The translations under genes were made by a program, and so were the position numbers. 64,000 nucleotides of DNA, taken from Candidatus Woesearchaeota archaeon. Its GTDB lineage: Archaea; Nanobdellota; Nanobdellia; Woesearchaeales; ARS49. This document shows, in pieces, positions 40,034-63,906 of this stretch (the first letter of the stretch is position 1; every line of letters begins with the position of its first letter). Where the stretch lies: assembly GCA_038868995.1 (NCBI GenBank), contig JAWCRZ010000002.1, positions 24,726 through 88,725 on the forward strand. The letters run 5' to 3'. Under the pieces are notes generated by a model. It did not search any database. It was not told the DNA's origin and worked only from the letters and a program-made list of their open reading frames with translations.

Positions 40034-41971
40034 GTGAGGGAACCCAATTCGGCATTGGACAGAATACCAAAATCAACTATGGCAGAGATTGTAAAAGAAA
40101 TAATGAAGTTTTTGCCTGCTGACAAGGTCAGCGACGTGGCATTTGAAGGTGCCAACATTGTCCTTTACACAAAGAATAAGGATTTCTTTTTGGATAATGA
40201 GGGTCTTATCAAGCAGGTTGTTAATGAATTCAAGAAAAGAGTAGAGTTAAGGCCTGACCCGTCTATCACAATGTCGCAGGAAAAGGCTGAGAAGGAAATC
40301 AAGAAATTGATGCCTGAGGATGCTGGAATTTCCCAGATTCTTTTTGACCCTGACCGTTCGATTGTGATTATTGAAGCTGAAAAGCCCGGGCTTGCCATTG
40401 GCAAGCAGGGTTCTTTGCTGAAGGAAATTCGTGAAAAGATTTTTTGGATTCCAATTATCAGGAGAACTCCTGCACTGCGTTCTCAATTAATTGAAAACAT
40501 CCGTGCAGTTCTTTTTGAGCATTCTGATTATCGCAGGAAGTTCCTTGACAAGGTGGGCCATCGTGTTTATGACGGCTGGATGCGTGAGAAGAAGAATGAG
40601 TGGATTAGGGTTACTCATCTTGGCGCTGCAAGGCAGGTTGGCAGGAGCTGTATTTTTCTGCAGACGCCCGAGTCAAGAATCCTGCTGGATTGTGGAATAA
40701 ACGTTGCTGCAGAGGGTCCTGAGGAATATCCTTTGCTTGACGCTCCTGAGTTTAACATCCAGCAGTTGGACGCTATTGTTCTTTCCCACGCCCATGTCGA
40801 CCATTCCGGCTTTATTCCTTATCTTTACAAGATGGGCTTCAGGGGCCCTGTTTACTGCACTGAGCCGACAAGGGACGAGGCCGCTTTGTTGATGCTTGAT
40901 ATGGTCAAGATTATGAAGTCGGAGAACAAGGAGCCGATTTATGATGCTGAGGATGTCAAGCAGTTTGTTTTGCACTGCATTACTTTGAACTGGGAGGAGG
41001 TTTCTGACATTACTCCTGATGTCCGCCTAACGTTGTACCCTGCTGGGCATATTTTGGGCAGTTCAATGGCACACTTGCATATTGGCAACGGTTTGCACAA
41101 TCTTCTTTACACGGGTGATTTGAAGTATGGCAAGACGCCTTTGCTTGACCCTGCAGCAACTATTTTCCCACGTCTTGAAACGGTTATTATGGAAGGGACG
41201 TATGGAGGCAAGACGGATATCGGCATTCCTTCGCACGAGGCAGACGCCTTGTTGTGCAATTACATCAAGGAAACCTTGAAACGTGGCGGTAAAGTACTTA
41301 TGCCTGTGCTTGGTACTGGAAAGGCGCAGGACCTGATGGTCATGATTGAGGGGATGGTGCGTAGGGGCGAGCTTGACCCAATTCCTGTTTATATTGATGG
41401 TATGGTTTGGGACATTACTTGCATTCACACTGCCTATCCAGAGTACTTGAACGCAAATCTGAGAAAGCTTATCTTTCATAAGGACCAAAACCCGTTTCTG
41501 AATCCGATTTTCAAGCGCGTTGGAAGCGCCAAGGAGAGGATGCAGGTGATAGAGGAGACTGGTCCTGCCGTTATTATGGCTACTTCCGGCATGATGGTTG
41601 GCGGTCCTTCTGTTGAATATTTGAAACATCTTGCTGATAATCCGAAGAACAGCTTGATTTTTTCTTGTTATCTTGGTGAAGGCACGCTTGGCCGCAGAAT
41701 CTTTGGCGGCGAGAGGGAGCTTATTTTCAAAAAGGGTGTCGGCCAGGAGGTTGTTACTATTAAGATGGAAGTGGTTAAGGTTGCCGTGTCAGACCATTCT
41801 GACAGGAAGCAGTTGATGAATTTTGTCTTCAAGTGCCAGCCGCGTCCGAAGAAAGTGATTGTGCAACACGGTGAAAGCACAAAAGTGCTTGACCTTGCCT
41901 CCGCCATCCACAAGCTGGGAAGAATTGAAACAGCAGCGCCCAAGAACCTGGAAACAGTGCGCATCAAGTAA
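40034..41971 (+). CDS. aCPSF1/FttA: KH-domain beta-CASP metallo-beta-lactamase ribonuclease
   Basis: Two N-terminal KH-like segments (IGKQGSLLKEIREKI), MBL motif HAHVDHSG, beta-CASP motifs, C-terminal HGE. The real ATG is probably MAEIVKE at ~40079; the six-frame ORF starts at a GTG. Confidence 0.9.
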   Translation: MREPNSALDRIPKSTMAEIVKEIMKFLPADKVSDVAFEGANIVLYTKNKDFFLDNEGLIKQVVNEFKKRVELRPDPSITMSQEKAEKEIKKLMPEDAGISQILFDPDRSIVIIEAEKPGLAIGKQGSLLKEIREKIFWIPIIRRTPALRSQLIENIRAVLFEHSDYRRKFLDKVGHRVYDGWMREKKNEWIRVTHLGAARQVGRSCIFLQTPESRILLDCGINVAAEGPEEYPLLDAPEFNIQQLDAIVLSHAHVDHSGFIPYLYKMGFRGPVYCTEPTRDEAALLMLDMVKIMKSENKEPIYDAEDVKQFVLHCITLNWEEVSDITPDVRLTLYPAGHILGSSMAHLHIGNGLHNLLYTGDLKYGKTPLLDPAATIFPRLETVIMEGTYGGKTDIGIPSHEADALLCNYIKETLKRGGKVLMPVLGTGKAQDLMVMIEGMVRRGELDPIPVYIDGMVWDITCIHTAYPEYLNANLRKLIFHKDQNPFLNPIFKRVGSAKERMQVIEETGPAVIMATSGMMVGGPSVEYLKHLADNPKNSLIFSCYLGEGTLGRRIFGGERELIFKKGVGQEVVTIKMEVVKVAVSDHSDRKQLMNFVFKCQPRPKKVIVQHGESTKVLDLASAIHKLGRIETAAPKNLETVRIK

Positions 41972-42003
41972 TGTTTTTATATCGCCAATTTCCCGTTAAT
42001 ATC

Positions 42004-42978
42004 GTGAAAGCGCTTGTTACGGGCATTGCTGGGCAGGACGGGAGCTATCTGGCTGAATTTTTGCTGCAGAAGGGCTATCAGGTTTTTGGCTTCAAACGCC
42101 ATGAGGATAATCTTGCCAATATTGGGCATATTAAAAGGAAAATAGTGCTTATTGACGGCGACCTTGCAAATGCCAAAGATGTTTTCAAAGCTGTTGAGCA
42201 GTCCATGCCGGATGAGGTTTATAATCTTGCTGCCATTTCCCATGTTGTGAAAGCCGCTTCTGCAAAAAATCTGTATGATGTTAATGTTGGCGGCGTCAGA
42301 TACATTATTGAAGCCGTCAAAAAGTTGAAGCCTGATGCAAAACTCTTTCAGGCATCTTCTGCCAAGATGTTCGGTGGCAGCACCATTTGCCCCCAGAATG
42401 AGCAAACGCCTTTCTCACCAGTCAGCGAATATGCAAAATCAAAAGTTGAAGCGCATAAATTAATTGTGCAGGCAAGAAATGATGGTTTGTTTGCCTCATG
42501 TGGCATTCTTTATAATCATGAAAGTCCGCGCAGGACGGTTGATTTTGTGTCGAGAAAAATCTCAAGCACGGTTGCACGCATTGCAAAAGGTGAAAAACTT
42601 ATCTTGAAACTTGGAAACCTGAACGCAGTCAATGACTGGGGTTTTGCCGGCGATTACGTTAAAGCCATGCATCTTATTCTCCAGCAGGAAAAGCCTGATG
42701 ATTTTATTATAGGCACCGGCGAGAGGCATACTGTCCGTGATTTTGTCAATGAAGCATTTGCTTTTGTTGGAAAGACGATTGAATGGCGCGGCACGGGAGT
42801 TGATGAGAAGGGATATGCGGATGGAAAGCTTCTTGTGGAAGTCGACCCGCAGTTTTTGCGCCCGGCTGACACAACTCCGTCTGTTGCGGATTTCTCAAAA
42901 ATTAAAAAAGCCGGCTGGAAGCCGGAAGTTTCTTTCAGTCAGCTGGTTAAGATGATGGTTTCTGCCGATTTGAGATGA
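42004..42978 (+). CDS. gmd: GDP-mannose 4,6-dehydratase
   Basis: KALVTGIAGQDGSYLAEFLLQKGYQVFG (Rossmann GxxGxxG), YAKSK catalytic motif equivalent, about 325 aa. A GTG at ~42004 gives the canonical N-terminus. An alternative ATG at 41971 overlaps the aCPSF1 stop. Confidence 0.88.
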   Translation: MKALVTGIAGQDGSYLAEFLLQKGYQVFGFKRHEDNLANIGHIKRKIVLIDGDLANAKDVFKAVEQSMPDEVYNLAAISHVVKAASAKNLYDVNVGGVRYIIEAVKKLKPDAKLFQASSAKMFGGSTICPQNEQTPFSPVSEYAKSKVEAHKLIVQARNDGLFASCGILYNHESPRRTVDFVSRKISSTVARIAKGEKLILKLGNLNAVNDWGFAGDYVKAMHLILQQEKPDDFIIGTGERHTVRDFVNEAFAFVGKTIEWRGTGVDEKGYADGKLLVEVDPQFLRPADTTPSVADFSKIKKAGWKPEVSFSQLVKMMVSADLR

Positions 42979-43870
42979 ATTCTTTAACTCGCTGATTGAA
43001 TTCTTCCTGTGTCACGCGTGTTTTTTCCGCTCTCAGGTCTATGCTTGCCAGCAGTTTTGGAAGCGAAATCGGGTCTCGTGCAATTTGACTTAGCAGGATG
43101 TTGGCAAGTGCCAGAACAAACAAATAAAATGGATAATGCTTGTATGCAAATCTGATAAAGTTTTTGTATTCGATTATTTTTGTGCTTCGTGAGTTTTTTA
43201 ATTTGTTGATGGTGTATGAACCAATGTGCTTTATGGCGACAGCTGGGTCGTATATTACCTTATAGCCGGCTTTTTTGATGCGCACAAACAAGTCGGTGTC
43301 TTCATACCAGAATGGCGACTGTTTTTCATCATACAATCCAATCCTGTCTGCAACTGTGCGCCTTATGACTATGCAGGCGCCGCTTGTCATATCAACATAT
43401 TGTTTTTTGTTCTCGTCTTCCACGCTTTTTTTCACGCTTCCCTGCCAGCGCGGTACAAAGTATGTGCCGGTTTCTTCAATGCTTCCGTCCGGCCGGAAAC
43501 ATTTCATTCCAGCGACTGCCGCTGTTCTGTCCGCTTCCAAATCAGCTACAAGTTTGCCAAGCCATTGTTTCTGGTTTTCTGGAATGATGACGTCGTTGCT
43601 GAAATACACGATGTAGTCAGGTTTTTCCTTTATTGCGTGGAAAACTCCTGTGTTCATTCCTTTTGGAAAGCCCAGGTTTCTCTTAAGCACAATAAATGGA
43701 ACGTTGAATTTTTTTATTTTTTCAACCGAATCGTCTGTTGAGCCGTTGTCTACAACTGTCAGTTTGTAGTTCTTGTATGCGGTATTCCTTATCAGTGTGT
43801 GCAGGCAGTTTTCAATTATCTCGCCGCCGTTAAAATTTATTACCACAATGGAAACAAGCGGTTCTTTCAT
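42947..43870 (-). CDS. family 2 glycosyltransferase (GT-A fold)
   Basis: VSIVVINFNGGEII..C, DNGSTD, and a DxD-type segment. About 300 aa. Confidence 0.8.
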   Translation of the reverse strand: MKEPLVSIVVINFNGGEIIENCLHTLIRNTAYKNYKLTVVDNGSTDDSVEKIKKFNVPFIVLKRNLGFPKGMNTGVFHAIKEKPDYIVYFSNDVIIPENQKQWLGKLVADLEADRTAAVAGMKCFRPDGSIEETGTYFVPRWQGSVKKSVEDENKKQYVDMTSGACIVIRRTVADRIGLYDEKQSPFWYEDTDLFVRIKKAGYKVIYDPAVAIKHIGSYTINKLKNSRSTKIIEYKNFIRFAYKHYPFYLFVLALANILLSQIARDPISLPKLLASIDLRAEKTRVTQEEFNQRVKEFISNRQKPSS

Positions 43871-45165
43871 TCTACATATCCTAACGCTTCCAGCTGTTCT
43901 CTGAGTTCTGGAGGGACCGTCACTTGCGTTCCGTTGCTTGTTGTTTGATTGACCCAGTCGTTGTAAATGGTTGAGAGTGCTGTTGCAAGGTTCTGTTGCT
44001 CCCTGAAGATGTTGTTTTGTTCTCCGGGGTCTTTTGTGAGGTTGAAGAGGTATTGGTAATGTCGCGCCCAGTAGTATTTAACGTCTGTTGTCTGTATTGC
44101 ATACGGAACTGGTTTTCCGTGGTCGCGCTCGCTTATTGCGTATTTTTGTCCTTCTGCGAGTGATTTTCCTTCAAATGTTTCCGGCTTTTTCAACCTCACC
44201 ATGTTTAGAAGAGTTGGAGCGATGTCAATGCTCATTGCAAGTTTTTTACTTACTCCTGGCTTTAATCCCGGTGCAGCTATTATTAAAGGCACGTGCAGGA
44301 GTTCGTTGTATAGCGTGTGTGAGTGCCAGCCGACTTGTCCGTGTTCTCCGAATTCCTCTCCGTGGTCTGATGTTATTACAATAATAGTCCTGTTGTATCT
44401 TCCGATTTCTTTCAATTGTTCTATAAACCATTTCATTGTTCTGTCAACTGATAATATTTCAGCGTCATATGTGGCTATGATGTGCTGCAAATCCTCTTGT
44501 GTGATGTTGTGCTTTTTGTTGTTTATTTTTTTTAGAAGCTCTACTGATATGTTTGTTCCAAGGGTGCCTGTGTAGTTTTTTTCTATTTCCTTCAAAAGTG
44601 CGGGGTCTGGAGTGTATGGGTGGTGTATTTCGTATGTGTGGAGAAAAAGAAACACAGGTCCGTGTGTTTCATTGAGCCATTCCAATCCCTGCTCTGCTAT
44701 CTGCCTGAATGTATCGTTTTTGAACTCTGCAAACACGTCAAAGCCCCTGTCAAAGCCGTATTTTGCTGACATCTGCCCGCTTCCTGTAAAGCCGGCAGTT
44801 GCATACTTCTCCCTTCTGAGTATTTCCGGCAGGGGAAGGTAGTCCTTTGCGTAGCTTGTGTTTCGTGAATTGAAGCTTTGGTGGTGGGAAGGTATGGCTG
44901 ACGTTAGGATTGATGCGTGTGCTGCCTGTGTTGATGGCGCTTGTGAAATTACATTGGTGAACAGTATTCCTTCTGATGCAAGTTTGCAGATGTTTTCAGT
45001 AATGTCAACTTCATATTTGTCGTAGCCGTTGCATGTTAAATGGTCTCCCCTGAAAGTGTCTATTGAGATTAGTATTATGCTGCAGTCAGGGCAGGCGTAA
45101 TCTGCCAAATCGCCTGTTGGCGTGCATGCTGCAAGCAAAATAAAAAGTAAAACTATTTTTTTCAT
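43867..45165 (-). CDS. sulfatase-like hydrolase/transferase (alkaline-phosphatase superfamily), lipoprotein signal; canonical C/S-x-P-x-R FGly motif degenerate
   Basis: Lipobox ILLAACTPTG. ISIDTFRGDH (metal-ligand Asp), ITSDHGEEFGEHG. Nucleophile region ISQAPSTQAAHAS instead of C-T-P-S-R. Confidence 0.75.
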   Translation of the reverse strand: MKKIVLLFILLAACTPTGDLADYACPDCSIILISIDTFRGDHLTCNGYDKYEVDITENICKLASEGILFTNVISQAPSTQAAHASILTSAIPSHHQSFNSRNTSYAKDYLPLPEILRREKYATAGFTGSGQMSAKYGFDRGFDVFAEFKNDTFRQIAEQGLEWLNETHGPVFLFLHTYEIHHPYTPDPALLKEIEKNYTGTLGTNISVELLKKINNKKHNITQEDLQHIIATYDAEILSVDRTMKWFIEQLKEIGRYNRTIIVITSDHGEEFGEHGQVGWHSHTLYNELLHVPLIIAAPGLKPGVSKKLAMSIDIAPTLLNMVRLKKPETFEGKSLAEGQKYAISERDHGKPVPYAIQTTDVKYYWARHYQYLFNLTKDPGEQNNIFREQQNLATALSTIYNDWVNQTTSNGTQVTVPPELREQLEALGYVE

Positions 45166-46430
45166 ATAACATATCCCAAACTTCTGAGCCGTTCGTCTGC
45201 TTCTGACTGCACGGCGCGTTGTTCATCGTTGAGTTTGGTGGTGTTCATCCAGTTGTCGCTTATCCATTTCTTTAATCTGTCAAGCATTGGCTCTTTCTCC
45301 GGGTGTTTTGGATTGTTTTTCTGCTCGTAGGGGTCTGTTGAAATGTCAAAGAATTGTTGCCTGCGCTCAGGCAGATAAATCAAATGGTAGTTTTGCGACA
45401 GCATTGCGTATTCCTGCAGGTCTGTTTTGTTCTTCTGGCGGTAGTATGATCTGCTGATGATGTCGCCTGTTTGGTATTGCTTGTTCTGCACGATGTTGAA
45501 AATGCTTTGTGTTGGCGTGTTTTCTTTGATGCGCTGTGGTTTTATGTTTGGTCCTCTGATGACATAGGGTACGTGGAGAACTTCTGTGTACAGCGTTAGC
45601 GCGTGCCCTATTCTTCCGTGTTCAAGGAACTCTTCTCCGTGGTCTGCGGTTATGATGAGCAGAGTTTTGCTTTTCAGCCCGAGTTCGTCAAGTACGCCAA
45701 CAAGCTCGCCAACGTATTTGTCTGTATAGTAGATTTCAGCGTCGTAGAGTGCTTTGATGCAGTCGAGCTCGCGTTTTGTTATGTTTTTCATGTTGGTGAT
45801 TTCTTTTATGTCCATGGTGTTGTATATTCTGCCGCAGGTTTCCTTTGAATACCCGAACATCTCCTCGTATTCAGGCAGGGGGTTGTAGTTGAAGTGTGGG
45901 TCAAAATAGTGCACCCAGAGGAAGAATTTTTTTTCTGAGTTGTTTTTCAGCCAGTTGATTACCTGCTTGTTTAGGATGTGCGAAGTTACCGATGACCTGT
46001 TCTTCCCTATATTTGTGAAACTTTCGAATCCTTTCCAGTCAGGCGCAACAAGCCCGTGATGGTCTGTGAATGCGGCGGTTGTATAGCCTGCATCCCGCAG
46101 TTCTTCTGCCGCATGGCGTGTGGTGTTGTAGAATGAATGCAGTTCCTCCATCTCCGTGTTTGAAATGACTTTGCCTGTAAGTATTGCGCGCAGTGCGAAT
46201 GGAGTGTAGGATGCCTGGCTGATTGCTTTTTCAAAAAGCACTCCTTCTTCAGCTATTTTGCAGATGTTTGGCGCCGTGTTTTTTGTGTATCCATAGCACT
46301 GCAAGTGGTCTGCCCTTACTGTGTCTATTGTGATTAGCAGTATGTTGCAACCAGGGCATGAGTATTCTGTTTCAGGAACTTGTATGCAGCCGGCGAGAAA
46401 AATTAGTGAAAGAATGATTGCCCGCTTCAT
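45162..46430 (-). CDS. sulfatase-like hydrolase/transferase (alkaline-phosphatase superfamily), lipoprotein signal; paralog of the upstream gene
   Basis: Lipobox IFLAGCIQV. ITIDTVRADH, ITADHGEEFLEHG. Nucleophile region SQASYTPFALRAILTG. Confidence 0.75.
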   Translation of the reverse strand: MKRAIILSLIFLAGCIQVPETEYSCPGCNILLITIDTVRADHLQCYGYTKNTAPNICKIAEEGVLFEKAISQASYTPFALRAILTGKVISNTEMEELHSFYNTTRHAAEELRDAGYTTAAFTDHHGLVAPDWKGFESFTNIGKNRSSVTSHILNKQVINWLKNNSEKKFFLWVHYFDPHFNYNPLPEYEEMFGYSKETCGRIYNTMDIKEITNMKNITKRELDCIKALYDAEIYYTDKYVGELVGVLDELGLKSKTLLIITADHGEEFLEHGRIGHALTLYTEVLHVPYVIRGPNIKPQRIKENTPTQSIFNIVQNKQYQTGDIISRSYYRQKNKTDLQEYAMLSQNYHLIYLPERRQQFFDISTDPYEQKNNPKHPEKEPMLDRLKKWISDNWMNTTKLNDEQRAVQSEADERLRSLGYVI

Positions 46431-48277: not shown

Positions 48278-48289
48278 TATTAATACCTC

Positions 48290-48493: not shown

Positions 48494-48532
48494 GAAAGTG
48501 CAATTATCTTCTGCTTATATATAGCTTTTGCC

Positions 48533-50662: not shown

Positions 50663-51775
50663 ATGCGGGTGGTTGTTGTTGGTCCGGTGTCGCCTTGTAG
50701 AGGTGGAATTTCATACTACACTACCGAGCTGTGCAGGCTTCTTGCAAAAAAGCACCGGGTTGTTGCGTACAGTATGGAGCGCTTATACACGAGTTTATTA
50801 TTTAGGCTGCTTTTCAGGGGCAACAATGTTTTTGACAGCAGCAAGCAGGTGGTTGACAGCGGTGTTGAAACTAAAAGAATAATTTCAGTTAATCCTTTCA
50901 GCTGGCTCAAGGCCGCTGTTAAAATCAGGCGGTTAAAGCCCGATGTTGTTATTGTCACCTGGATTGAGCCGTATATGGCGCCGCTTGCGAAAACGCTTGA
51001 GTGGTTTCTGCCCAAAAGCGCCAGGCTTGTTTTTATCTGCCATAATGTTCTTCCGCACGAGCCTCGCTTGTTCTCAAGACAGCTGGCCGGATTAAGTTTT
51101 AAAAATGTTGACGGGTTCATAACTCACGCTGAGAGCGAGACAAAGAGACTGCTTGAGCTTTGCCCCGGAGCGAGTTATGTTCAGGCTTATCTGCCTGCTT
51201 ACACCTTGGTTAGTGGTGGTGGTTCTATTAGAAAAGAGCTGGGTTTGCGCGGTAATGTCCTTTTGTTTTTTGGCTATGTTCGGCCTTACAAGGGCCTGCG
51301 TTATTTGCTTAAGGCGCTTCCAATTGTTCTCGAGAAAGTTGACCTTGACTTGCTTGTTGTAGGCGAGTTCTGGGAGGATAAGGGCGAATACCTGGACATT
51401 ATCAGGGTGCTTGGCGTTGAAGACCGCGTCAAGATTGTTGACCGTTATGTTCCAAATGAGGATATTGGTCGTTATTTTGCCGATGCTGATGTCGCCGTAT
51501 TGCCTTACGAGTCTGGCAGTCAGTCAGCTGTCGTGCAGGTGGCGTACGCTCACGACACTCCTGTTATCGCGTCAAGAACCGGTGGGCTCGCTGACAATGT
51601 TGTTGACGGCAAAACCGGCTTCCTTGTGGAGCCGAAAAACGAGAAGGCACTTGCCGATGCCATAATAAGGTTCTATATTCAGAAAAAACGAAAGGAGTTT
51701 GTAAAAAACATTAAAAAAATCAGGCAAAAATTCAGTTGGGCTGAGTATATGCGCCGGCTTGAGAGCTTATTCTAA
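50663..51775 (+). CDS. GT4-family glycosyltransferase (GT-B fold)
   Basis: C-terminal ...VLPYESGSQSAVVQVAYAHDTPVIASRTGGLAD.V.DGKTGFLV matches the GT4 E-x7-E region. Confidence 0.8.
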   Translation: MRVVVVGPVSPCRGGISYYTTELCRLLAKKHRVVAYSMERLYTSLLFRLLFRGNNVFDSSKQVVDSGVETKRIISVNPFSWLKAAVKIRRLKPDVVIVTWIEPYMAPLAKTLEWFLPKSARLVFICHNVLPHEPRLFSRQLAGLSFKNVDGFITHAESETKRLLELCPGASYVQAYLPAYTLVSGGGSIRKELGLRGNVLLFFGYVRPYKGLRYLLKALPIVLEKVDLDLLVVGEFWEDKGEYLDIIRVLGVEDRVKIVDRYVPNEDIGRYFADADVAVLPYESGSQSAVVQVAYAHDTPVIASRTGGLADNVVDGKTGFLVEPKNEKALADAIIRFYIQKKRKEFVKNIKKIRQKFSWAEYMRRLESLF

Positions 51776-52831
51776 TATTTTCTTGTATTTCTGGATTTGC
51801 TTTTTTATGTCGTGGTTTTTTTCAAAGTATGCCCTGCACTTGTGTGAGAGTTTCCGCCAGTTTTTTCGCACGCTTTTGATGTCCTGTAGCAGCTGTTCAA
51901 AAGTGTGGGAATGGAAGCCAAGTCCGTAACGGCAGATGGTTTCGTCCACGTCTGTATGCAGGGAGATTACTGGCGTCCCGGCGCGCCATGCCTCGACATA
52001 CACGTTGCCAAATCCCTCTTCCTTGGAGAGCGATATGAGCGCAATTGCCTTTGAGTAATACTCGTGCATTTTTTCGTTTGGAACAAATGGCAGGACTTTC
52101 ATATTGCTCGGCACTGGTTTTTCGTAAGGGCATATCAGCACAAATTTTTCTTCTGGCATTAATTCCGCCAGTTTCACAAAAAGGTCAGGTTGTTTTAATG
52201 CGTTGTTTCTTCCTACGAATAGGAAAAATTCCCTTTTGTTCTTCTTTAATGGTTTGCTGCTTTTGCCGATGTGGATTATTGTTGTTTTTGCGTGCGTTCT
52301 TGGAGGAGTGCGCTTCAGCTGGTCGTTGGAAATCGCCACTATTTTGTCTGCCAGCTGCATGCTTGCCCTGTCGAATATCACCCAGCGCAGGAATGAAACC
52401 GGCTTCCACAGCATTCGTGCGGGTGTTCCAGGGACAACATAGAGGTATTTCTTCGAGTGTTTTTTGCAGAATAATGCTGTTGTCAGGCGTATTTCCCCAA
52501 GTGCTGCGCGATGTATGTAAATGTTTGCGTTGATTTCCCTGAGTTTTTTCCATAGTTTCAGATGGTATTTTAAAATCTGCGCAGGCCTTGTTTTGTACTG
52601 CACAAATCTATTTACAGGTATCCACTGCATTGTCCATACTGTGATGTTGTGTTTCCTGAATTTTTTTTCCTCATCCGCCTCCACGAGCATATGCACGTCG
52701 TAGTTTTTGTCTTTTGCAATCTCGACTGCTTCCTCATGAATTGCTGTTTCTGCTCCGGCATAGGGGTGTGGATATTTTTTATCAAACATTTTGTAGCCGA
52801 AGTGATTTATATAGCAGATTTTAACCGGCAT
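51767..52831 (-). CDS. GT4-like glycosyltransferase (GT-B fold)
   Basis: EGFGNVYVEAWRAGTPVISLH..DETI..YGLGF matches the GT4 C-terminal domain pattern. Confidence 0.7.
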   Translation of the reverse strand: MPVKICYINHFGYKMFDKKYPHPYAGAETAIHEEAVEIAKDKNYDVHMLVEADEEKKFRKHNITVWTMQWIPVNRFVQYKTRPAQILKYHLKLWKKLREINANIYIHRAALGEIRLTTALFCKKHSKKYLYVVPGTPARMLWKPVSFLRWVIFDRASMQLADKIVAISNDQLKRTPPRTHAKTTIIHIGKSSKPLKKNKREFFLFVGRNNALKQPDLFVKLAELMPEEKFVLICPYEKPVPSNMKVLPFVPNEKMHEYYSKAIALISLSKEEGFGNVYVEAWRAGTPVISLHTDVDETICRYGLGFHSHTFEQLLQDIKSVRKNWRKLSHKCRAYFEKNHDIKKQIQKYKKILE

Positions 52832-53168
52832 TCTTCAATCTCCTTAGCCATATGATATTTATCAAAACAAAGGATATGAGCGCTTCGACGATTGCGAAAG
52901 TTACTGCATTTATTGGCAGCGAAAGCAGAAGTGCAGCATACCATCCGATGGAAGTTATTGCCATTCCAATGGCGAAATTGATTGCGTGCGCTTCTGCTCT
53001 TGTGTATTTCTGTCTGCCTATGTGCTGGACTGCAAGGTAGCCGGTTAGGTAAATTATGAATACTGCCCCGCCGAACAAAAATGAGTCCTTGGTTTCCAGC
53101 CGTCGCATAAGTAGCAGGCTTATTAGTATGCATGCAATGAACGCGTCAACCCATCTTCTAACAGTCAT
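52821..53168 (-). CDS. small 4-TM membrane protein (GtrA-like size and topology; unassigned)
   Basis: 115-aa hydrophobic ORF overlapping its neighbours by a few codons. Confidence 0.4.
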   Translation of the reverse strand: MTVRRWVDAFIACILISLLLMRRLETKDSFLFGGAVFIIYLTGYLAVQHIGRQKYTRAEAHAINFAIGMAITSIGWYAALLLSLPINAVTFAIVEALISFVLINIIWLRRLKNAG

Positions 53169-54754: not shown

Positions 54755-56047
54755 GTGGAAATGTCATTTTTAAGCAGGATACTGGGATTTCTTGGAATGG
54801 ACAGCGATTTGCACAGACAGCTGGTGCGGAATACTGTTTTTCTCATTGGTTCTGAAGCAGTCATCAAAATAATTGTTGCTGTGCTTGCTATTTTTATCGC
54901 GCGCCATCTTGGCACTTTGGGCTATGGCGAGTTGCAGTTTGCCATTGCTTTTGCAGCGATGTTCCAGTTTGCGCTTGACCTTGGCTTTAATGGCCTGATG
55001 GTGCGCGAGATTGCCGCTGACTACCGGAGCGCTCGGAAATATGCTGAGAATGTGCTGACTTTGCGCATCATTCTGGCATTGTTGTGCTATGCTGTTCTTG
55101 CCATGCTTGTGTTTTTTATCAACAAGCCGCTGGAAATAAAGTGGCTTGTTCTTCTTGCAGGGGTGCAGCTTGTGTTTATTACATTGATGGATTTCTGCTC
55201 TGCTTTGTTCCAGGCGTTTGACAAGGTTTACCTCCGCGCTGCGATGCGGCTGCTTTATCACGTCGTGCTTGTTTCGGCGTGCTTGTATGTTTTCTTGTCA
55301 AAGGGAGGTGTGCAACAGTTTATGTACGCGTATGTGTTGAGTGCGTGTGTTGCATTTCTTGTTGCTTTTTTTGTCGCACAGGCGAAATTCACGCGCTTTG
55401 TGCTCGGCTTTGATTTTGGTTTTTGGAAAAAAATATTTGTGGAAATGCTTCCTTTTGCCTCCATTGCAATTCTTGCAACAATGTACAACCGTGTTGACAT
55501 GGTGATGCTTTCCTTTATGAAAGGTGAGGAGGCGGTTGGAATTTATGCTGCTGCGTTTAATGTCTATTCAGCTTTTCAGCTGATGCCTGTGCTGGCGATT
55601 ACTGCAGGTTATGCGTCGCTTGCGCGTTTGTTCAGGTATGGTTCGCAGGGGTTCAGGCACCTTGTGCGGCAATATTTCTGGTGGCTGCTGTGTGCTGGAG
55701 TTGCCGGAGCTGTGCTGTTGTTTTTAATTGCCAATCCTCTTGTGCGGCTTGTGTACGGGGAGGTGTTTGCCGCATCCGGCGCAGTGTTGCAGGTGTTTGG
55801 CATATGCCTGTTGACGGGCACGCTGATTTATTTCCTGTCGACTTATTGCATTATCTCGCGTATGCAGAAAAAGTATGTGCGAATTCTTTTTATGGCATTG
55901 CTGCTGAATATCTGCCTGAATTATGTTCTGATTGGGAAGTTCAGTTATCTTGGAGCAGTTGTTGCCACGTTTGTTGCACAGCTTTACCAGGTTGTTATGC
56001 TTATCGCAGTAAGTTATTTTTCCGGGCAGCGGGTGTGGGCGCGATGA
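54755..56047 (+). CDS. oligosaccharide flippase (Wzx-like, MOP superfamily, polysaccharide biosynthesis protein family)
   Basis: About 430 aa with 12-14 TM helices. N-terminal ...LVRNTVFLIGSEAVIKIIVAVLAIFIARHLGTLGYGELQFA matches the PF01943 pattern. Confidence 0.75.
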   Translation: MEMSFLSRILGFLGMDSDLHRQLVRNTVFLIGSEAVIKIIVAVLAIFIARHLGTLGYGELQFAIAFAAMFQFALDLGFNGLMVREIAADYRSARKYAENVLTLRIILALLCYAVLAMLVFFINKPLEIKWLVLLAGVQLVFITLMDFCSALFQAFDKVYLRAAMRLLYHVVLVSACLYVFLSKGGVQQFMYAYVLSACVAFLVAFFVAQAKFTRFVLGFDFGFWKKIFVEMLPFASIAILATMYNRVDMVMLSFMKGEEAVGIYAAAFNVYSAFQLMPVLAITAGYASLARLFRYGSQGFRHLVRQYFWWLLCAGVAGAVLLFLIANPLVRLVYGEVFAASGAVLQVFGICLLTGTLIYFLSTYCIISRMQKKYVRILFMALLLNICLNYVLIGKFSYLGAVVATFVAQLYQVVMLIAVSYFSGQRVWAR

Positions 56048-57114
56048 GAATTGCAATTATTGCTGATGTGCTTGACAGGAATAATGCTGGCATCAGCCAG
56101 TACGCGCGACAGCTCATCATGCATCTGAAAAGGTGGCATGAGCTGACTGTTGTTCACGTGAAAAAATCAGATGACCCTGTATTTGAAGGCACTCGCGAGA
56201 TTATCGTGCCGCGCTTTTTCTCGTCTCCAAGCCTGCTCCGGCTTTTTGTCAACCTGTTCCTTCGCAATCTTGACGTCGACATTATTCACCATCCTTCAAC
56301 GTTGGGCGCTTTTGCCCTGCCGATGCGCCAGAAGCTTGTCCAGACGGTTTTTGACGTGATTCCTTTGAAGCTTCCAAAGACGCGCACTTGGTGGAATGGA
56401 TTTCTGTATCGGTTTCTGGCAAAGCCGTCTATCAGGAATGCTGATGCAATCATAACCATAAGCAATAACTCTAAAAAAGATATTTGTGAGATGCTGCATG
56501 TTCCGGAGGAAAAAATCTTCATTACGCCCCTTGCATCTATGTATTCCGTTCCAACACGTGCGGATGTTGAGAAAGTTCAAAAGCGCCATGGCATCTCTTA
56601 TCCTTATTTTATTTATGTGGGCACGTTTGAGCCACGTAAAAATATAGTGCGGATGCTTGATGCGTTTGCGCTGTCAGGGCTGCCTCACCATTTTCTGCTT
56701 GTTGGCAGCCGTGGATGGAAGGATGAGCATGTTTTCCGGAAGGCGGCAGGCATGAAAAACGTGCACGTTTTGTCAGGTGTTCCAAACGAGGACTTGCCCG
56801 CTTTGTATGCCGGCGCTGCCGCATTGGTGTACGTTTCGTTGTACGAAGGCTTTGGCCTGCCTGTTGTCGAGGCGATGTCTTGCGGCTGTCCGGTTATTTC
56901 CAGCTGTACGTCAAGCTTGCCGGAAGTTGGGGGCTCTGCTGCATTGTACGTCGACCCGTATCACGTTGGCTGCATTGCCCGTGCAATGAAGATGGCGGTG
57001 AAAAGACGGGCGGTGCTTTCAAAAAAGGGCCAGCGCCAGGCGAAAAAGTTTTCTTGGGAGCGCACGGCACGGCTGACTGAGCAGGTATATCGTTCGCTTT
57101 ATAGAAATCAATAA
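56044..57114 (+). CDS. GT4-family glycosyltransferase
   Basis: MRIAIIAD..., C-terminal LVYVSLYEGFGLPVVEAMSCGCPVISS.TSSLPEVGG. ATGA overlap with the flippase stop. The six-frame ORF was over-extended by 121 codons. Confidence 0.8.
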   Translation: MRIAIIADVLDRNNAGISQYARQLIMHLKRWHELTVVHVKKSDDPVFEGTREIIVPRFFSSPSLLRLFVNLFLRNLDVDIIHHPSTLGAFALPMRQKLVQTVFDVIPLKLPKTRTWWNGFLYRFLAKPSIRNADAIITISNNSKKDICEMLHVPEEKIFITPLASMYSVPTRADVEKVQKRHGISYPYFIYVGTFEPRKNIVRMLDAFALSGLPHHFLLVGSRGWKDEHVFRKAAGMKNVHVLSGVPNEDLPALYAGAAALVYVSLYEGFGLPVVEAMSCGCPVISSCTSSLPEVGGSAALYVDPYHVGCIARAMKMAVKRRAVLSKKGQRQAKKFSWERTARLTEQVYRSLYRNQ

Positions 57115-57130
57115 AAAAGGGTGGTTCTTC

Positions 57131-59200: not shown

Positions 59201-60795
59201 GTTTGCACCGCCTTGTATAGTCCATTCATTACGTTGCTGGTAAAGTTAAGCTCAAGCCCGCAGGTTGCATTGGTGTATTCCTGCAGGACGTCTGCCGGGG
59301 GTATTTTGGAGCCGGGCACCACGTACACTGGGATGCCTTTCTTGTGCACGCCGCAGAGCATCGATGCAAATGTTTGTGCGTCAAATGGTTTTGACTGCGG
59401 GCTTGCATACGCGGTCATGTTTCTGGTTGGATAAACCCATTTGCCCCAGTAATCCCCAAAGATGAGCGCTTCCGGCTCTGTGACTTTGGCGACTTCTGCC
59501 GGTATTCTTGAAAAGGCGTGTGTTGAGCTGTAGTTGGTGAGCATTCCTTCCTGGGGGTGGAAGAGTATGCTGATGTTGATGACGGCCAGCATAACGAGGA
59601 ATCCCGTCCTGAGAACTCTGTTCCTGAGTGCGAGCGCGTTGAACGTGCAGAGCAGTATTGCAAGTACATACCATCCCATCCAGTATCGCACAAATGATGA
59701 GTGTATGATTGGGATTGGCTTGTCGGATCCGTGGAATCTTCCGCCGCCGAAATAGGCGACTGCCAGAAGCAGGTATGCTGCAAGGAATATGAGGAAGTGC
59801 TTGTGTTTTTTGAGAGCGTCGCGGTATGCGTGGAATGCGATGGCGATGCCGGGGAGCGCGAGAATCCAGAATGGAACGAAGAATCTGAAAATGTAGCGCG
59901 AGGCGCTTTCCCTTATTCGTTCCGGAATGAGCTGGTTTGGAAGAATGTATGCCCTTATCTTGTGTTTCATTTTCTCCCAGAATGTCTCTTTGTGCTCTCC
60001 AACCAATGACATATAGCTTACGTTGAGCGGGTTGCCAAGTATTTTTGCGTTGAAGATTAGCACGGGCGTAAAGAATATGAGCATTATGCAGCCCACTGTC
60101 AGGAATTTGTGGGTTCTTTTCCAGTGTGATGGCTTGGTTATGAAGACAAGCGCAAGTGGCAGCGTTATAAACAACAGGAATTCATAGCGCATCAGTATTG
60201 TTGCCCCAAAGAATATGCCCATCAGTATGTACTGGGGCCATTTGTCTTCCTGAAGCGCTTTCAGCAGATAATAGCTTCCTCCGATGAAAAGTGCAAGCGC
60301 CGGTACGTTGTTGTACATCACTGTACTAAAATACCAGAACGGTGCTGTGAAGAATAGCATTATTGCGCTTATGTATGCGTATTCTTCATTTATTATTTCG
60401 CGGGCAATAAGATAAATAAATAATACTGTAAGAACTCCGAAAATGCTGGTGATGAAGAACATGCTGTTTGGAATAAGCCGTTCAAATAGTCCATAGGTTG
60501 CAGGCATTCCGATAAATCCGGCAGGATATACAGTGCTGTTAACATTTCGCGAGTGCCGAGGTCCGACTCCACCAAAGGTGAGGTCGTTGAGCTGCTCTTC
60601 AAAAGTGAGCAGATAGGTATTCGCGTAGAGTTTGCTGAAGAAGATGTTTGCTGTTTCGTCAGGAGCTCTCCAGTATGGCGGCAAGAAATTGCCGTAGGCG
60701 TAGGTTATAAAGAAAAGTAGCGCGATGGCAAGAAGCATTATCTCTTGCCAGTTCCAATTCAGTTTTTGTATGCTTTTAGTGTTTGTTGTGCGCAT
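59197..60795 (-). CDS. GT-C fold membrane glycosyltransferase (PMT/ArnT-like), 532 aa
   Basis: N-terminal TM followed by a loop with the PDE motif (YWRAPDETANIFF), more than 10 TM helices, then a C-terminal soluble region. Confidence 0.65.
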   Translation of the reverse strand: MRTTNTKSIQKLNWNWQEIMLLAIALLFFITYAYGNFLPPYWRAPDETANIFFSKLYANTYLLTFEEQLNDLTFGGVGPRHSRNVNSTVYPAGFIGMPATYGLFERLIPNSMFFITSIFGVLTVLFIYLIAREIINEEYAYISAIMLFFTAPFWYFSTVMYNNVPALALFIGGSYYLLKALQEDKWPQYILMGIFFGATILMRYEFLLFITLPLALVFITKPSHWKRTHKFLTVGCIMLIFFTPVLIFNAKILGNPLNVSYMSLVGEHKETFWEKMKHKIRAYILPNQLIPERIRESASRYIFRFFVPFWILALPGIAIAFHAYRDALKKHKHFLIFLAAYLLLAVAYFGGGRFHGSDKPIPIIHSSFVRYWMGWYVLAILLCTFNALALRNRVLRTGFLVMLAVINISILFHPQEGMLTNYSSTHAFSRIPAEVAKVTEPEALIFGDYWGKWVYPTRNMTAYASPQSKPFDAQTFASMLCGVHKKGIPVYVVPGSKIPPADVLQEYTNATCGLELNFTSNVMNGLYKAVQT

Positions 60796-61835
60796 TTTTT
60801 CCAGGTGAATTTTCGCGCTTGTTTGAGTCCTTTTGCACGCATAGTTTTTCGTAATTGTTTGTCTGTGAGCACAGCAATGATTCCATTCCTAAGCTCTTCT
60901 ATGTTTCCTTCCGGCAGCAGAAGCGCCGCGTTACCGGTTATTTCTGGTATGCTTGACGTGTTGTACGCTATTGTCGGGCAGCCGCACGCCATTGCTTCAA
61001 GCACTGGAAGTCCGAATCCCTCGTAGCTTGATGGCAGGACAAATGCGTCTGCTATGCTGTAGAATGCCGGCAAATCTTCTTCTGGAATGGTTGGAATTCT
61101 AATCACTCGAGCGTTCAAATTCAGTTTTCTTATGAGGTTTTCGTGCTTTCTTGCATATGCCGGATACGCATTGCCTGCTTTCAATATGCAGTGTTCTGGG
61201 AATTTCTCTTTTATTTGCGCGAATGCACCGAGCAGTTGTGCGTAATTCTTTCTCGGTTCTTCGCTTGAAATGTGAAGTATGAATTTTTTGTCAGGCAAAT
61301 AATATTTTTCTTTTAGCATCTTGCATTCTTTTTTGGTTGCAGGTCTGAACTGTTTGTCAACTCCCAAAGGGATGACTGTTATTTTTTCCGGTCTGATGCG
61401 CAGGTGATTGATAAGGTCTTTTTTTGTGTTTTCAGAGTCAGCAAGTATGTGTCGTGCTTGTTTTATCCCTGAATAAAGAAATTGCTGTTGCAGCCATTCA
61501 GTAAGGTTGCGTGGTAATATGCGCCTGACTATGTCGTGGCATGTTATTATTTTGGGATGCAGGCGTGCATATGAGAAGTCCTGCATGCTTATGTGGTATA
61601 CATCATACTTTTTTGGGATGTGTTTTATTGCCGCCAGATTGAACGCGAATCTCCGCTTGAATGGCGCTCTGACTGATATTTCAGTCATTCCATTGCGTGT
61701 GTGACATTCTATTTTGCTTTTTTCAAAATTTAGATAATAATAATCAATGCTGTTCTTCAGATGCATAAAGAGGTTGTGTGCGTATTTGCCCACGCCTGTG
61801 TATTGCGGCGCTGGATTGATTAAAGCTATTTTCAT
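60759..61835 (-). CDS. GT4-family glycosyltransferase
   Basis: MKIALINPAPQYTGVGKYAHNL..., C-terminal FVLPSSYEGFGLPVLEAMACGCPTIAYNTSSIPEITG. Confidence 0.8.
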   Translation of the reverse strand: MKIALINPAPQYTGVGKYAHNLFMHLKNSIDYYYLNFEKSKIECHTRNGMTEISVRAPFKRRFAFNLAAIKHIPKKYDVYHISMQDFSYARLHPKIITCHDIVRRILPRNLTEWLQQQFLYSGIKQARHILADSENTKKDLINHLRIRPEKITVIPLGVDKQFRPATKKECKMLKEKYYLPDKKFILHISSEEPRKNYAQLLGAFAQIKEKFPEHCILKAGNAYPAYARKHENLIRKLNLNARVIRIPTIPEEDLPAFYSIADAFVLPSSYEGFGLPVLEAMACGCPTIAYNTSSIPEITGNAALLLPEGNIEELRNGIIAVLTDKQLRKTMRAKGLKQARKFTWKKCAQQTLKAYKN

Positions 61836-62770: not shown

Positions 62771-62901
62771 AAAGCACCCCGTTTTTTGCTCCCTCAAATC
62801 ACTTATTAAATATTTCGCGAGACCACTATAGAGATACAACTGTACTACCCAAAAATTTAAAAAGGGGGTGAGTATTGTGATGGCAAAAAGGGCTGAACAG
62901 C

Positions 62902-63906
62902 ATGTTTTCAAAAGGGGCATTGAAAAAATACGGCATAAGTATTCTGTTAACGCTTATTATAATCGGCATTGTGTTTCTCATCGGGCCTGCTGCCGCGTTG
63001 ATTCTCTCAATCGATGGCTTGCCTGTTTCGGTCACCGCTCCTGGCTCGTTTATGTTCTTCCTGAATTTTGATATTGGCTCTGGTGAGTTGATTCCGGGCG
63101 GCTTTACAGTCAATATGAATGGCAATACGTGCGAGTTTGACAATGATGCCAACCCGATTGGCGGCTCGTTGTGCCCTCAGATTAACTGTGAGGTTGTGAA
63201 CAAGGGTTCTTCATCATTTGGCATCTTTAATGCGAACGGATTCTTTGACGGCTATGGGTATGGCTATGGCTACAGGTATGGTTATGGTTATGAGAATGGA
63301 GAATTGAGATACAAATGTACGATTACGTTGCCGTGTGGGCTGCAGGGCACTGGATTGACCTTGTCGTTCAGCACTGAGGTTGATGGCATGACGTTCACCT
63401 CTCCGTCGCATTCATTGGCTCTCATCCCCCAGTCGTGCGGAGGAACGTCAGGCGGTGGTGGCGGTGGTGGTCAGGGCTATTGCTGTGAGCCGGTTGTTAA
63501 TTTTGCAAAGTGGCGCTGTTGTCAGAAGGCCTACATTGCGAGAATCCAGTGCTGCGCTCAGCCTCAGCATCCTGACTGTTCAAGATACTGCAAGTTGATG
63601 GAATGTATCAAGCCTTATACCATGGACCCGATTGTTGGAAGATGTGTTCTTGGTTCTCAAAATGAGCCGGGCTTTGGCAATCTTGGTCAGGATAGTGAAG
63701 TAAAATCTACTCCGCAGGATGGTTTTGCAGGCACGGGCCAGTCAACCCAGATGGGTGGCGAGGGAACTGGTGGCTTTGGAGCTGGTTCTCAAGGCGGTTC
63801 TGCCGGCGGTCCTTCGGGCGGTATGAGCTGGGCTACAATCCTTGCAATTATTCTTGTCTTGCTTGGTCTTGGTTTGCTCGCGTGGCTTCTGTCAAGAAGA
63901 AGCTGA
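62902..63906 (+). CDS. secreted surface protein with (GY)n repeat, Gly7-9 run, Cys-rich segment and C-terminal TM plus basic tail (334 aa)
   Basis: N-terminal TM/signal ISILLTLIIIGIVFLIGPAAA. GYGYGYGYRYGYGYENG. GGGGGGGQGYCCEPV...CC.K...CCAQPQHPDCSRYCKLMEC. C-terminus ...WATILAIILVLLGLGLLAWLLSRRS. Confidence 0.65.
   Translation: MFSKGALKKYGISILLTLIIIGIVFLIGPAAALILSIDGLPVSVTAPGSFMFFLNFDIGSGELIPGGFTVNMNGNTCEFDNDANPIGGSLCPQINCEVVNKGSSSFGIFNANGFFDGYGYGYGYRYGYGYENGELRYKCTITLPCGLQGTGLTLSFSTEVDGMTFTSPSHSLALIPQSCGGTSGGGGGGGQGYCCEPVVNFAKWRCCQKAYIARIQCCAQPQHPDCSRYCKLMECIKPYTMDPIVGRCVLGSQNEPGFGNLGQDSEVKSTPQDGFAGTGQSTQMGGEGTGGFGAGSQGGSAGGPSGGMSWATILAIILVLLGLGLLAWLLSRRS

Follow-up and report, generated by a model that had tools for sequence, protein, structure and literature searches.

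Sulfate-activation genes can be paired with a sulfotransferase for a glycan, as in the case of NodPQ and NodH. Similarly, the capsular polysaccharide (CPS) cluster of Vibrio sp. KMM 8419 contains cysNDC along with genes for sulfotransferases dependent on 3′-phosphoadenosine-5′-phosphosulfate (PAPS) (PMC11641403). In the archaeon Halobacterium salinarum, Zaretsky et al. (2025) identified Agl30 (VNG1056C) and Agl31 (VNG1057C) as N-glycan sulfotransferases of the sulfatase fold: N-glycan sulfation was lost upon the deletion of agl30 or agl31 and was gained by Haloferax volcanii when either one was introduced (PMC11980604). Agl30 has an N-terminal transmembrane (TM) segment, and the best structural matches of the two proteins are BT1596 (5G2U) and FA22070 (6HHM), whereas the sulfate donor and the mechanism were not addressed in that work (PMC11980604). 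In Haloferax, Agl7 is required for the sulfation of dolichyl phosphate (Dol-P)-hexose. Here, we describe a locus on contig JAWCRZ010000002.1 of a Candidatus Woesearchaeota archaeon, contained in a stretch of 64,000 nucleotides (nt) that was analyzed as a whole and is referred to as the window. In this locus, cysD and cysN, the genes of ATP sulfurylase, form one operon with three genes encoding alkaline phosphatase (AP)-superfamily proteins amid genes of glycan assembly. We found no paper in the literature tying cysDN to these AP-superfamily genes.

Window genes were identified by open reading frame (ORF) calling followed by Pfam and NCBIfam scans, and relatives were compared by their ORFs and by seed searches. 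As shown in Table 1, glycan-assembly genes occupy positions 41971 to 62920, with the sulfate-activation operon in the center. The operon runs on the minus strand from 50562 to 42947 in the order of cysD, cysN, an ORF of 67 amino acids (aa), a PF01663 phosphodiesterase gene (its product being denoted PDE-long), the genes of two sulfatase-fold proteins (SulfB and then SulfA), and a glycosyltransferase family 2 (GT2) gene, all of which are co-directional. Neighboring genes share 1 or 4 bp of their stop and start codons at four junctions (43867/43870, 45162/45165, 46427/46430, and 49759), in agreement with the ATGA-type couplings initially annotated, and the overlap between cysD and cysN at 49759 is 1 bp. 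This gene order is kept in three more genomes (loci L006, L007, and L091).

CysN scored 370.3 bits against TIGR02034 (cutoff, 336.1) and carries no APS (adenosine-5′-phosphosulfate)-kinase domain in its 408 aa, and CysD scored 378.5 bits against NF003587 (cutoff, 195). Since each of the two subunits passes a curated model, the ATP sulfurylase activity that had already been assigned to CysDN is well supported at the sequence level. CysD passes NF003587 yet reaches only 289 bits against the narrower TIGR02039, under the cutoff of 396.6, and it thus belongs to a distinct clade. A length of 267 aa is shared by nearly all of the 120 best CysD homologues, which align from Met34; this residue (50562) is most likely the start of the protein, which would leave a divergent intergenic region of 100 bp.

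To find out how common this arrangement is, the cysDN clade was surveyed by a CysD scan covering one genome per GTDB species, which yielded 80 loci of 63 to 94% identity; seeds from the window and from three further loci were used for the ORF searches in related loci. The related loci included 78 nonredundant ones, 65 with a complete cysDN pair, and 38 flanked on either side by four or more ORFs. The archaeal loci belong to Woese-, Nano-, Aenigm-, Iain-, Micr-, and Altiarchaeota, Methanoperedens, Methanoregula, Methanofastidiosum, and Thermoplasmatota, methanogens and anaerobic methanotrophic archaea (ANME) included, and the bacterial ones to the candidate phyla radiation (CPR), Omnitrophota, Acidobacteriota, Planctomycetota, and others. 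An AP-superfamily gene was located within six ORFs of cysD in 62 of the 78 nonredundant loci and in 36 of the 38 well-flanked ones, the latter figure indicating that the adjacency is not accidental. Furthermore, when ORFs shorter than 110 aa were disregarded, the gene following cysDN encoded an AP-superfamily protein in 45 of 65 loci, with 42 of the 45 on the same strand. When 150 randomly sampled neighboring ORFs were scanned against Pfam and the 25 commonest families were ranked, glycan-synthesis families dominated, including NDP-sugar epimerases/dehydratases (14), GT4 (11), UDP-sugar dehydrogenases (5), and Wzx (5), accompanied by ABC-2 exporters (4) and methyltransferases (4). Sulfatase-fold and GT2 domains are even joined within one protein in L046 and L060, with T-I-P-A-H at the nucleophile position in L060 and T-D-P-C-V (Thr, no His) in L046. 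Taken together, these comparisons of sequence and gene order make a functional coupling of the cysDN clade to AP-superfamily enzymes and glycan synthesis appear well established.

Accessory genes accompany cysDN in many relatives. In 17 loci, cysD and cysN are separated by a TauE/SafE permease gene (PF01925), and an anion permease at this place fits the uptake of inorganic sulfate for activation. A DUF2061 membrane protein is encoded at the same position in 9 loci, HIT-family proteins are found in 5 loci, and a 74-aa ribbon-helix-helix (RHH)-like protein, recognized by its sequence pattern and lacking any Pfam match, is encoded just upstream of cysD in 43 loci; none of these TauE, DUF2061, HIT, or RHH-like genes was found in the window. 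A cysH-like PAPS_reduct paralogue of 200 to 220 aa occurs in L049, L050, and L060 alone, where its gene adjoins a sulfatase-fold gene (unfused in L050). The L049 paralogue shows a CC...CxxC pattern and the C-terminal tail described below. In the Woesearchaeota relative L002, STT3 is encoded 7 kb from cysD.

Neither SulfA nor SulfB carries the formylglycine motif of classical sulfatases. In the alignment of SulfA to 2qzu and 7oz8, Thr79 occupies the position of the formylglycine precursor and His83 that of the motif Arg, such that T79-Q-A-A-H83 stands in place of C/S-x-P-x-R. Among the 120 best SulfA homologues, T79 is present in all 120 and H83 in 119, with a family consensus of A-Q-A-P-S-T-L-P-S-H-A-S-I-F-T-S; SulfB has the divergent motif T-P-F-A-L-R. 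Because the Cys or Ser is replaced by Thr, which cannot be oxidized to formylglycine, the two proteins are, as far as their sequences tell, not classical formylglycine sulfatases. To our knowledge, no characterized sulfatase of the type I fold works without formylglycine. No formylglycine-generating enzyme (FGE) was found in the window, in which the sole radical-SAM protein is MiaB-like (UPF0004 plus TRAM). EfAS, a Mn-dependent arylsulfatase of the sulfatase fold, was rejected as a model for the Thr-type proteins, since EfAS requires its Cys61 to become formylglycine.

The AlphaFold2 (AF2) model of SulfA (pLDDT 95) was then compared with solved structures using Foldseek. All of its 50 best neighbors in the Protein Data Bank (PDB) were S1 sulfatases or phosphonate monoester hydrolases (PMH), the sulfatases being specific for carbohydrates or choline, with an E value of 1e-26 to BT4656 and others. 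BT1596 (5g2t and 5g2u) was among the matches (E of ~5e-24; TMq, 0.71), and 6hhm was found as a sequence match of SulfA (4.4e-12). On an 852-kb bacterial contig (L086), the gene of an exported SulfA homologue adjoins those of a TMEM260-type GT-C (glycosyltransferase of the C fold) and a small GT2, with no cysDN. The association of such exported Thr/His sulfatase-fold enzymes with a GT-C may be more general than the link to cysDN.

The third AP-superfamily protein of the operon, PDE-long, matched PF01663 with 127 bits (cutoff, 23). Its residues D31, S70, D370, H374, D420, H421, and H567, which make up the site of nucleotide pyrophosphatases/phosphodiesterases (NPP), are conserved in 15 orthologues, S70 being either Ser or Thr. 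Searching solved structures with the single sequence gave no match; the family profile retrieved ENPP1 (E of 5.5e-8), in which the nucleophile Thr lies opposite S70, and it also matched PhnA and the Xanthomonas NPP. The 67-aa ORF between cysN and the PDE-long gene is real, and its peptide consists of AYIDPGTGS, one TM helix, and a basic tail. A YIDPG(T/S)G plus TM module is fused to the N terminus of PDE-long in the bacterial loci L018, L043, L082, and L085, and the orthologous PF01663 proteins with the fused module are from Bdellovibrionota, Acidobacteriota, and Omnitrophota.

In relatives, the slot of PDE-long is occupied by a gene that we call mini-AP, to whose product PDE-long is distantly homologous. 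This cytoplasmic AP-superfamily protein of 230 to 250 aa is the commonest partner of cysDN (35 loci). Its gene directly follows cysN, often overlapping the stop codon, in DPANN, Methanoperedens, Methanoregula, and Thermoplasmatota. Mini-AP retains the whole NPP two-metal site (D8, T41, D159, H163, D196, H197, and H208), although it barely matches Pfam, and its profile reaches iPGM and ENPP7 in the PDB marginally.

Four unrelated families encoded around cysDN share a C-terminal tail, in which an acidic stretch is followed by L-(K/R/E)-(A/S)-L-G-Y-(L/I/M/V)-x0-3. The tail is present in 77 of 81 CysD proteins, 49 of 51 RHH-like proteins, and 114 of 120 members of the Thr/His sulfatase-fold family, as well as in the short PAPS_reduct paralogues, and the tailed families co-occur around the cysDN clade (L002 to L085). 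In the six-frame translation of the whole window, it ends CysD, SulfA, and SulfB only (Table 1). A natural reading is that the shared tail serves a common docking partner, e.g., CysN, but most of the tailed sulfatase-fold proteins are exported, which counts against it.

Enzymes that would process APS further were searched for. With E. coli CysC as the query, tblastn revealed no APS kinase in the window, and phmmer yielded no convincing candidate within ~10 kb of cysD among 1235 ORFs of 85 loci (the source contig plus 84 related loci), the sole match being a weak one in L060 (E of 0.001); the query was not drawn from a sequence record, and the negative is somewhat weaker for it. An AAA_33 P-loop kinase of the window was rejected as CysC, for it is Pnkp/PSTK-like. 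The larger ORFs of the window, when scanned against Pfam, included no PAPS-type sulfotransferase (PF00685, PF03567, or PF13469), STT3 (PF02516), cysH, or sulfite reductase. Likewise, APS_kinase, NIR_SIR, and Sulfotransfer were not among the 25 commonest families of the 150 sampled neighbors, a survey that included no direct search for sulfite reductase. The initial annotation had seen neither cysC nor a sulfotransferase in the window. The former statement holds for the window and the related loci with the CysC query used; the latter holds for PAPS-type enzymes, but it is probably wrong in substance, given the sulfatase-fold sulfotransferases Agl30 and Agl31.

We tentatively favor the explanation that the locus makes a sulfated surface glycan by means of CysDN and sulfuryl-handling enzymes of the sulfatase or NPP fold, in the manner of Agl30 and Agl31, and we consider this quite possible. 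As family membership suggests, the GT4 and GT2 enzymes would assemble the glycan in the cytoplasm on a polyprenyl (dolichyl) phosphate, the Wzx protein would flip it, and the three GT-C enzymes would extend or transfer it outside, using lipid-phospho-sugars from the AglJ/DPM1-like GT2. CysD-CysN, members of curated families, would convert sulfate, ATP, and GTP to APS in the cytoplasm. PDE-long, SulfA, and SulfB would act as sulfuryl-handling enzymes like Agl30 and Agl31, replacing the coupling of APS kinase to a PAPS sulfotransferase, and the final sulfuryl step would take place after flipping, on the outer face beside the GT-C steps. Activated sulfate would then need a carrier to take it across the membrane, e.g., a sulfated lipid-linked sugar or another lipid-linked donor; an alternative to the carrier would be a cytoplasmic NPP-type isoform starting from a conserved internal Met.

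The topology of the three AP-superfamily proteins is the strongest objection to this explanation: they face the outside, and APS is cytoplasmic. At the N termini of SulfA, SulfB, and PDE-long, a short basic segment is followed by a hydrophobic one and by a lipobox (LAAC, LAGC, and LGGC, respectively), which bears out their initial annotation as secreted lipoproteins. The starts of SulfA and SulfB are set by the ATGA overlaps, PDE-long starts with TTG preceded by GGAGG 8 nt upstream, and the signal peptides are kept in the L006 and L007 orthologues. Moreover, export or anchoring is the rule among the SulfA homologues (105 of 120). Since cytoplasmic relatives (L002) and exported forms have their catalytic motif in common, APS cannot be the direct donor for the whole family, and the exported forms either rely on a membrane-crossing donor or do something else. 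For PDE-long, a cytoplasmic isoform is conceivable, because a Met is kept behind the anchor where soluble orthologues start. In the window, this is Met18 (48220 to 48230), whose ATG was chosen as the start when genes were called automatically on the source contig; in anchored members generally, the Met is found 8 to 12 residues before the first β-strand, right behind the anchor or lipobox. Such a post-anchor Met is present in eight sequences from four separate clades (window/L006/L007, L042/L029, L067, and L082/L085).

Other observations also weigh against a sulfated glycan. A Thr nucleophile surrounded by a His-rich pocket typically marks phosphoryl transfer (NPP, LtaS, and EptA) rather than sulfuryl transfer. 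Exported SulfA homologues are encoded in bacteria far from any cysDN, and mini-AP, the most frequent partner in relatives, was not found in the window. The likeness to Agl30 and Agl31 is one of fold and gene context. Finally, cysC has been reported in some DPANN genomes (PMC7906910) and may lie elsewhere in this one.

A more specific proposal, which we regard as decidedly doubtful, is a PAPS-independent route, in which APS would be used without APS kinase by a relay of non-formylglycine AP-superfamily enzymes, with the last transfer occurring outside from activated sulfate on a lipid. This donor, e.g., dolichyl-phospho-sulfate or a sulfated dolichyl-phospho-sugar, would be made inside and flipped in parallel to the lipid-phospho-sugars of the GT-C enzymes. 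If true, this route would assign a biosynthetic role to the sulfatase fold across DPANN, CPR, and many anaerobes, and it would explain why cysDN is kept by organisms without sulfate assimilation.

Three other explanations were weighed against that of a sulfated glycan. The exported lipoproteins could free sulfate or another anion from external esters, which would then be imported and activated by CysDN, with the enzymes for the subsequent sulfation or assimilation encoded elsewhere; we consider such a supply chain unlikely but deserving of serious attention. It accommodates the export of SulfA, SulfB, and PDE-long better than direct use of cytoplasmic APS does, and in bacterial sulfate-starvation regulons cysDN is co-regulated with arylsulfatase and sulfonate transporters. 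In the CPR loci L013, L019, and L078, an SsuA/TauA-like ABC transporter follows cysDN in place of AP-superfamily genes, and the TauE permease within the cysDN pair of 17 loci points in the same direction, as does the reading of DPANN sat/cysN plus atsA as sulfur acquisition in metagenomic surveys (PMC8091004). The window itself, however, encodes no TauE or other recognizable sulfate importer, and an invariant Thr at the nucleophile position makes formylglycine impossible. In addition, cysH and sulfite reductase were not found in the window, neither they nor APS kinase are common near related loci, and cytoplasmic members with the same motif and GT2 fusions make no sense for scavenging. Scavenging had been one of two readings offered in the initial annotation; it is weakened by the missing formylglycine motif, while the export of the enzymes is as stated there. 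The other, a sulfated glycan, is the better supported of the two by the AP-superfamily linkage, the glycan neighbors, and the precedent of Agl30 and Agl31, with the reservation that the three enzymes are exported.

Phospho-group chemistry unrelated to sulfate, by which the exported enzymes would modify the flipped glycan or its lipid carrier while CysDN serves a separate sulfation step with another transferase, appears rather improbable to us. Transfer or hydrolysis of a phosphodiester or phospho-substituent, or recycling of the carrier pyrophosphate, would resemble the reactions of LtaS, EptA, OpgB, and NPP, and it would suit the Thr nucleophile of the sulfatase-fold proteins, a weak NCBIfam similarity to LtaS, EptA, and YejM, and the complete NPP two-metal site of PDE-long. 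The extracytoplasmic site beside GT-C and ArnC/AglJ-like GT2 enzymes recalls lipid A modification systems, and the bacterial homologue on L086 does without cysDN in just such company. Nevertheless, this chemistry leaves unexplained both the translational coupling to cysDN and the linkage in 36 of 38 loci. The multi-TM lipid-binding domain of LtaS and EptA is missing here, and these two enzymes fall outside the top 50 PDB neighbors of the SulfA model, which is nearest to carbohydrate sulfatases and PMH. As for an ordinary assimilation pair chancing to sit in a glycan locus, cysDN is normally assimilatory and has been read so in studies of ANME and methanogens (PMC6286981). Mere chance is nonetheless very hard to credit and largely refuted by the overlapping stop and start codons in the operon, the synteny kept in L006, L007, and L091, and an AP-superfamily linkage that crosses phyla. 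Glycan genes dominate the neighborhoods, no cysC was found in the searched loci with the CysC query used, and the PAPS_reduct paralogue is present in three loci only. A cysDN pair within a cysC-cysH-sir operon in relatives, which according to the initial annotation would speak for accidental adjacency, was not seen among the related loci examined.

Table 1. Coordinates of features in the window and, where an L number is given, in related loci
Feature	Position	Strand	Evidence or remark
GGDEF diguanylate-cyclase-domain protein	3417..4853	-	PF00990, E 1e-36
Three successive large ORFs (733, 297, and 1357 aa)	15351..22617	+	no Pfam family
AAA_33 P-loop kinase	28451..29014		Pnkp/PSTK-like
Class III adenylate/guanylate cyclase-AAA-TPR protein, 1125 aa	32251..35628	-	
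Cu/Zn superoxide dismutase	38718..39230	+	PF00080, E 2e-36
gmd-like NDP-sugar 4,6-dehydratase, 335 aa	41971..42978	+	PF16363, E 7.5e-101
GT2, 307 aa, final gene of cysD operon	42947..43870	-	PF00535, E 2.4e-21
SulfA, sulfatase-fold lipoprotein	43867..45165	-	PF00884, E 1.1e-41; tail LEALGYVE (43867-43890)
SulfB, sulfatase-fold lipoprotein	45162..46430	-	PF00884, E 1e-37; tail LRSLGYVI (45162-45185)
PDE-long, NPP-type two-metal enzyme, 616 aa	46427..48277	-	PF01663, E 1.6e-36
Membrane peptide, 67 aa	48290..48493	-	gene call on source contig; no Pfam match
CysN, GTPase subunit of ATP sulfurylase, 408 aa	48533..49759	-	TIGR02034; PF00009, PF03144, PF22594
CysD, catalytic subunit of ATP sulfurylase, 267 aa	49759..50562 (ORF to 50661)	-	NF003587; tail LRSLGYM (49759-49782)
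GT4, divergent from cysD	50663..51775	+	PF13692, PF00534, E 1e-25 to 1e-28
GT4-like, C-terminal GT-B half alone recognized	51767..52831	-	PF00534, E 3.9e-14
Small membrane protein, 115 aa, coupled to neighbors	52821..53168	-	source-contig gene call; kept in L091; no significant Pfam match
Polytopic enzyme with predicted GT-C fold, 513 aa	53158..54699	-	AF2 model and homologues; no Pfam family
Wzx-type flippase	54755..56047	+	PF01943, E 1e-24; NF041871 Wzx_EPS, E 1.1e-17, under cutoff
GT4	56044..57114	+	PF00534, PF13439; source-contig gene call
GT-C, PMT_2 (ArnT/PMT-like), 468 aa	57471..58877	-	PF13231, E 2.3e-13
Small membrane protein between PMT_2 genes, 108 aa	58874..59200	-	source-contig gene call; no Pfam match
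GT-C, PMT_2 family, 532 aa	59197..60795	-	PF13231, E 1e-18; NF047440, E 1.9e-15
GT4	60759..61835	-	PF00534, E 7.7e-36
AglJ/DPM1-like polyprenyl-phosphate glycosyltransferase, GT2, 312 aa	61832..62770	-	PF00535, E 1.1e-19
Protein of 334 aa	62902..63906	+	no Pfam match
Mini-AP	L002 12238-12957		example
Mini-AP	L004 12142-12870		example
Mini-AP	L005 12002-12691		example; 32 further loci
Thr-type sulfatase-fold/GT2 fusion	L046 945-3434	-	fusions of 829-1233 aa
Thr-type sulfatase-fold/GT2 fusion	L060 13622-17323	+	
Thr-type sulfatase-fold/GT2 fusion	L049 1-2750	-	
TauE, DUF2061, HIT, or RHH-like accessory genes	L005, L024, L026, L029, L035, L045, L049, L050, L059, L066-L068, L076, others		
Exported SulfA homologue with TMEM260-type GT-C and small GT2	L086 8001-12084		

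The gene content initially annotated for positions 41971 to 62920 agrees with the ORF calls and the Pfam and NCBIfam matches, with a few corrections. The seven GT-A/GT-B transferases are in fact six, and the four GT4 enzymes are three clear GT4 plus one GT4-like protein. Two of the three GT-C enzymes were recognized by PMT_2, the first being 468 aa by gene call rather than a 584-aa ORF. The third, of 513 aa, has no Pfam match even at E ≤ 1 and belongs to a very small family, with 20 homologues in a collection of 5.8 billion proteins (word-indexed search), 9 of which match PMT_2 and 6 EpsG. Its AF2 model (pLDDT 83; pTM 0.84) was matched by Foldseek to STT3/AglB/PglB (E of ~1e-8; TMq, 0.55 to 0.63) and then to DPY19, ArnT, and ALG12, and the sequence contains no WWDYG-type motif (WWDxG). 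Thus, the modeled fold identifies the protein as a GT-C enzyme, but it cannot be called AglB in the absence of WWDYG, and no AglB/STT3 is seen in the window, as initially annotated. The AglJ/DPM1-like GT2 matched AglJ (1e-34), PpgS, dolichyl-phosphate hexose transferase, and ArnC best in NCBIfam, all under cutoff.

The gmd-like protein scored 326 bits against TIGR01472, under the equivalog cutoff of 415, and the window indeed encodes no reductase or epimerase partner for it. A role as UDP-sulfoquinovose synthase was rejected, as the Gmd match is far above other families of short-chain dehydrogenases/reductases (SDR) and no sulfite-forming enzyme is present. The term island, which had been applied to the region, does not fit: since the G+C content is even (0.43 to 0.49) and the locus recurs with its flanking housekeeping genes in a relative of 70% identity, it is lineage stable and not recently acquired. 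Directly after the glycan locus, a candidate glycoprotein substrate of the cell surface is encoded, namely a 334-aa protein that shows an N-terminal TM segment or signal, a GYGYGYRYGYGY stretch, a Cys-rich region, Gly/Ser-rich low complexity, and a C-terminal TM anchor.

The window is that of a DPANN archaeon, and elsewhere it encodes eIF2-gamma, FttA/aCPSF1, the proteasome, and archaeal aminoacyl-tRNA synthetases. It also encodes a GGDEF-domain protein and a large class III cyclase; cyclic-nucleotide signaling genes of these kinds are unusual in archaea. The three successive large ORFs without a Pfam family may code for surface proteins. A Cu/Zn superoxide dismutase gene is found in this presumably anaerobic archaeon and has the same position in L091.

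These results bear on how sulfur genes are read in uncultivated lineages. DPANN and CPR have been scored as sulfur cyclers by cysDN/sat plus "arylsulfatase," but the genes studied here form one module in glycan loci, and metabolic reconstructions of DPANN and CPR would need correcting. The linkage of cysDN without APS kinase suggests a testable donor candidate for Agl30 and Agl31, namely APS or an APS-derived product. Three uncharacterized families are defined: the Thr/His sulfatase-fold proteins, the long NPP-type enzymes with a YIDPGTG module, and the 240-aa cytoplasmic mini protein coupled to CysN. Sulfated surface glycans of episymbiotic archaea could matter for host attachment.

Among known enzymes, NPP/ENPP share with PDE-long the seven residues of the two-metal site and a Ser/Thr nucleophile. 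PDE-long differs from them by an insertion of ~245 aa, a C-terminal extension of 190 aa, the replacement of the Asn of F-P-N-H (PVAW), a separate or fused YIDPGTG plus TM module, and the coupling of its gene to cysN. S1 sulfatases and PMH resemble the sulfatase-fold proteins of the window in fold, β1 Asp motif, SDHG metal motif, and overall active-site architecture. However, S1 sulfatases carry C/S-x-P/A-x-R where SulfA has T-x-x-x-H and SulfB T-P-F-A-L-R, and the Lys that follows their SDHG is not conserved in the type found here, which has no maturase gene in the window either. LtaS, EptA, OpgB, and BcsG are alike in their sulfatase-fold domain, Thr/Ser nucleophile, and action on envelope glycans at the outer face, but they have no link to sulfate activation and are not the nearest structural neighbors of SulfA. 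LtaS and EptA, moreover, possess an N-terminal multi-helix membrane domain, whereas the window enzymes have just a lipoprotein signal peptide before the catalytic domain.

Bacterial clusters for sulfated polysaccharides likewise include sulfate-activation genes as a dedicated supply of activated sulfate. They do so with APS kinase, as cysC or a CysN fusion, and with PAPS sulfotransferases, in place of which the window has AP-superfamily genes. Closest to the locus are Agl30 and Agl31, which are, like SulfA and SulfB, sulfatase-like members of the AP superfamily encoded within an archaeal glycosylation cluster, with the same structural neighbors BT1596 (5G2U) and FA22070 (6HHM), one member anchored in the membrane by an N-terminal segment, and no PAPS-type sulfotransferase needed. 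Their cluster is anchored by aglB and has no reported cysDN, whereas the window encodes lipobox lipoproteins in one operon with cysDN. The locus extends the Agl30/Agl31 kind of system by a conserved, dedicated sulfate-activation partner, a Thr/His catalytic signature, and an exported variant that poses a problem of donor topology.

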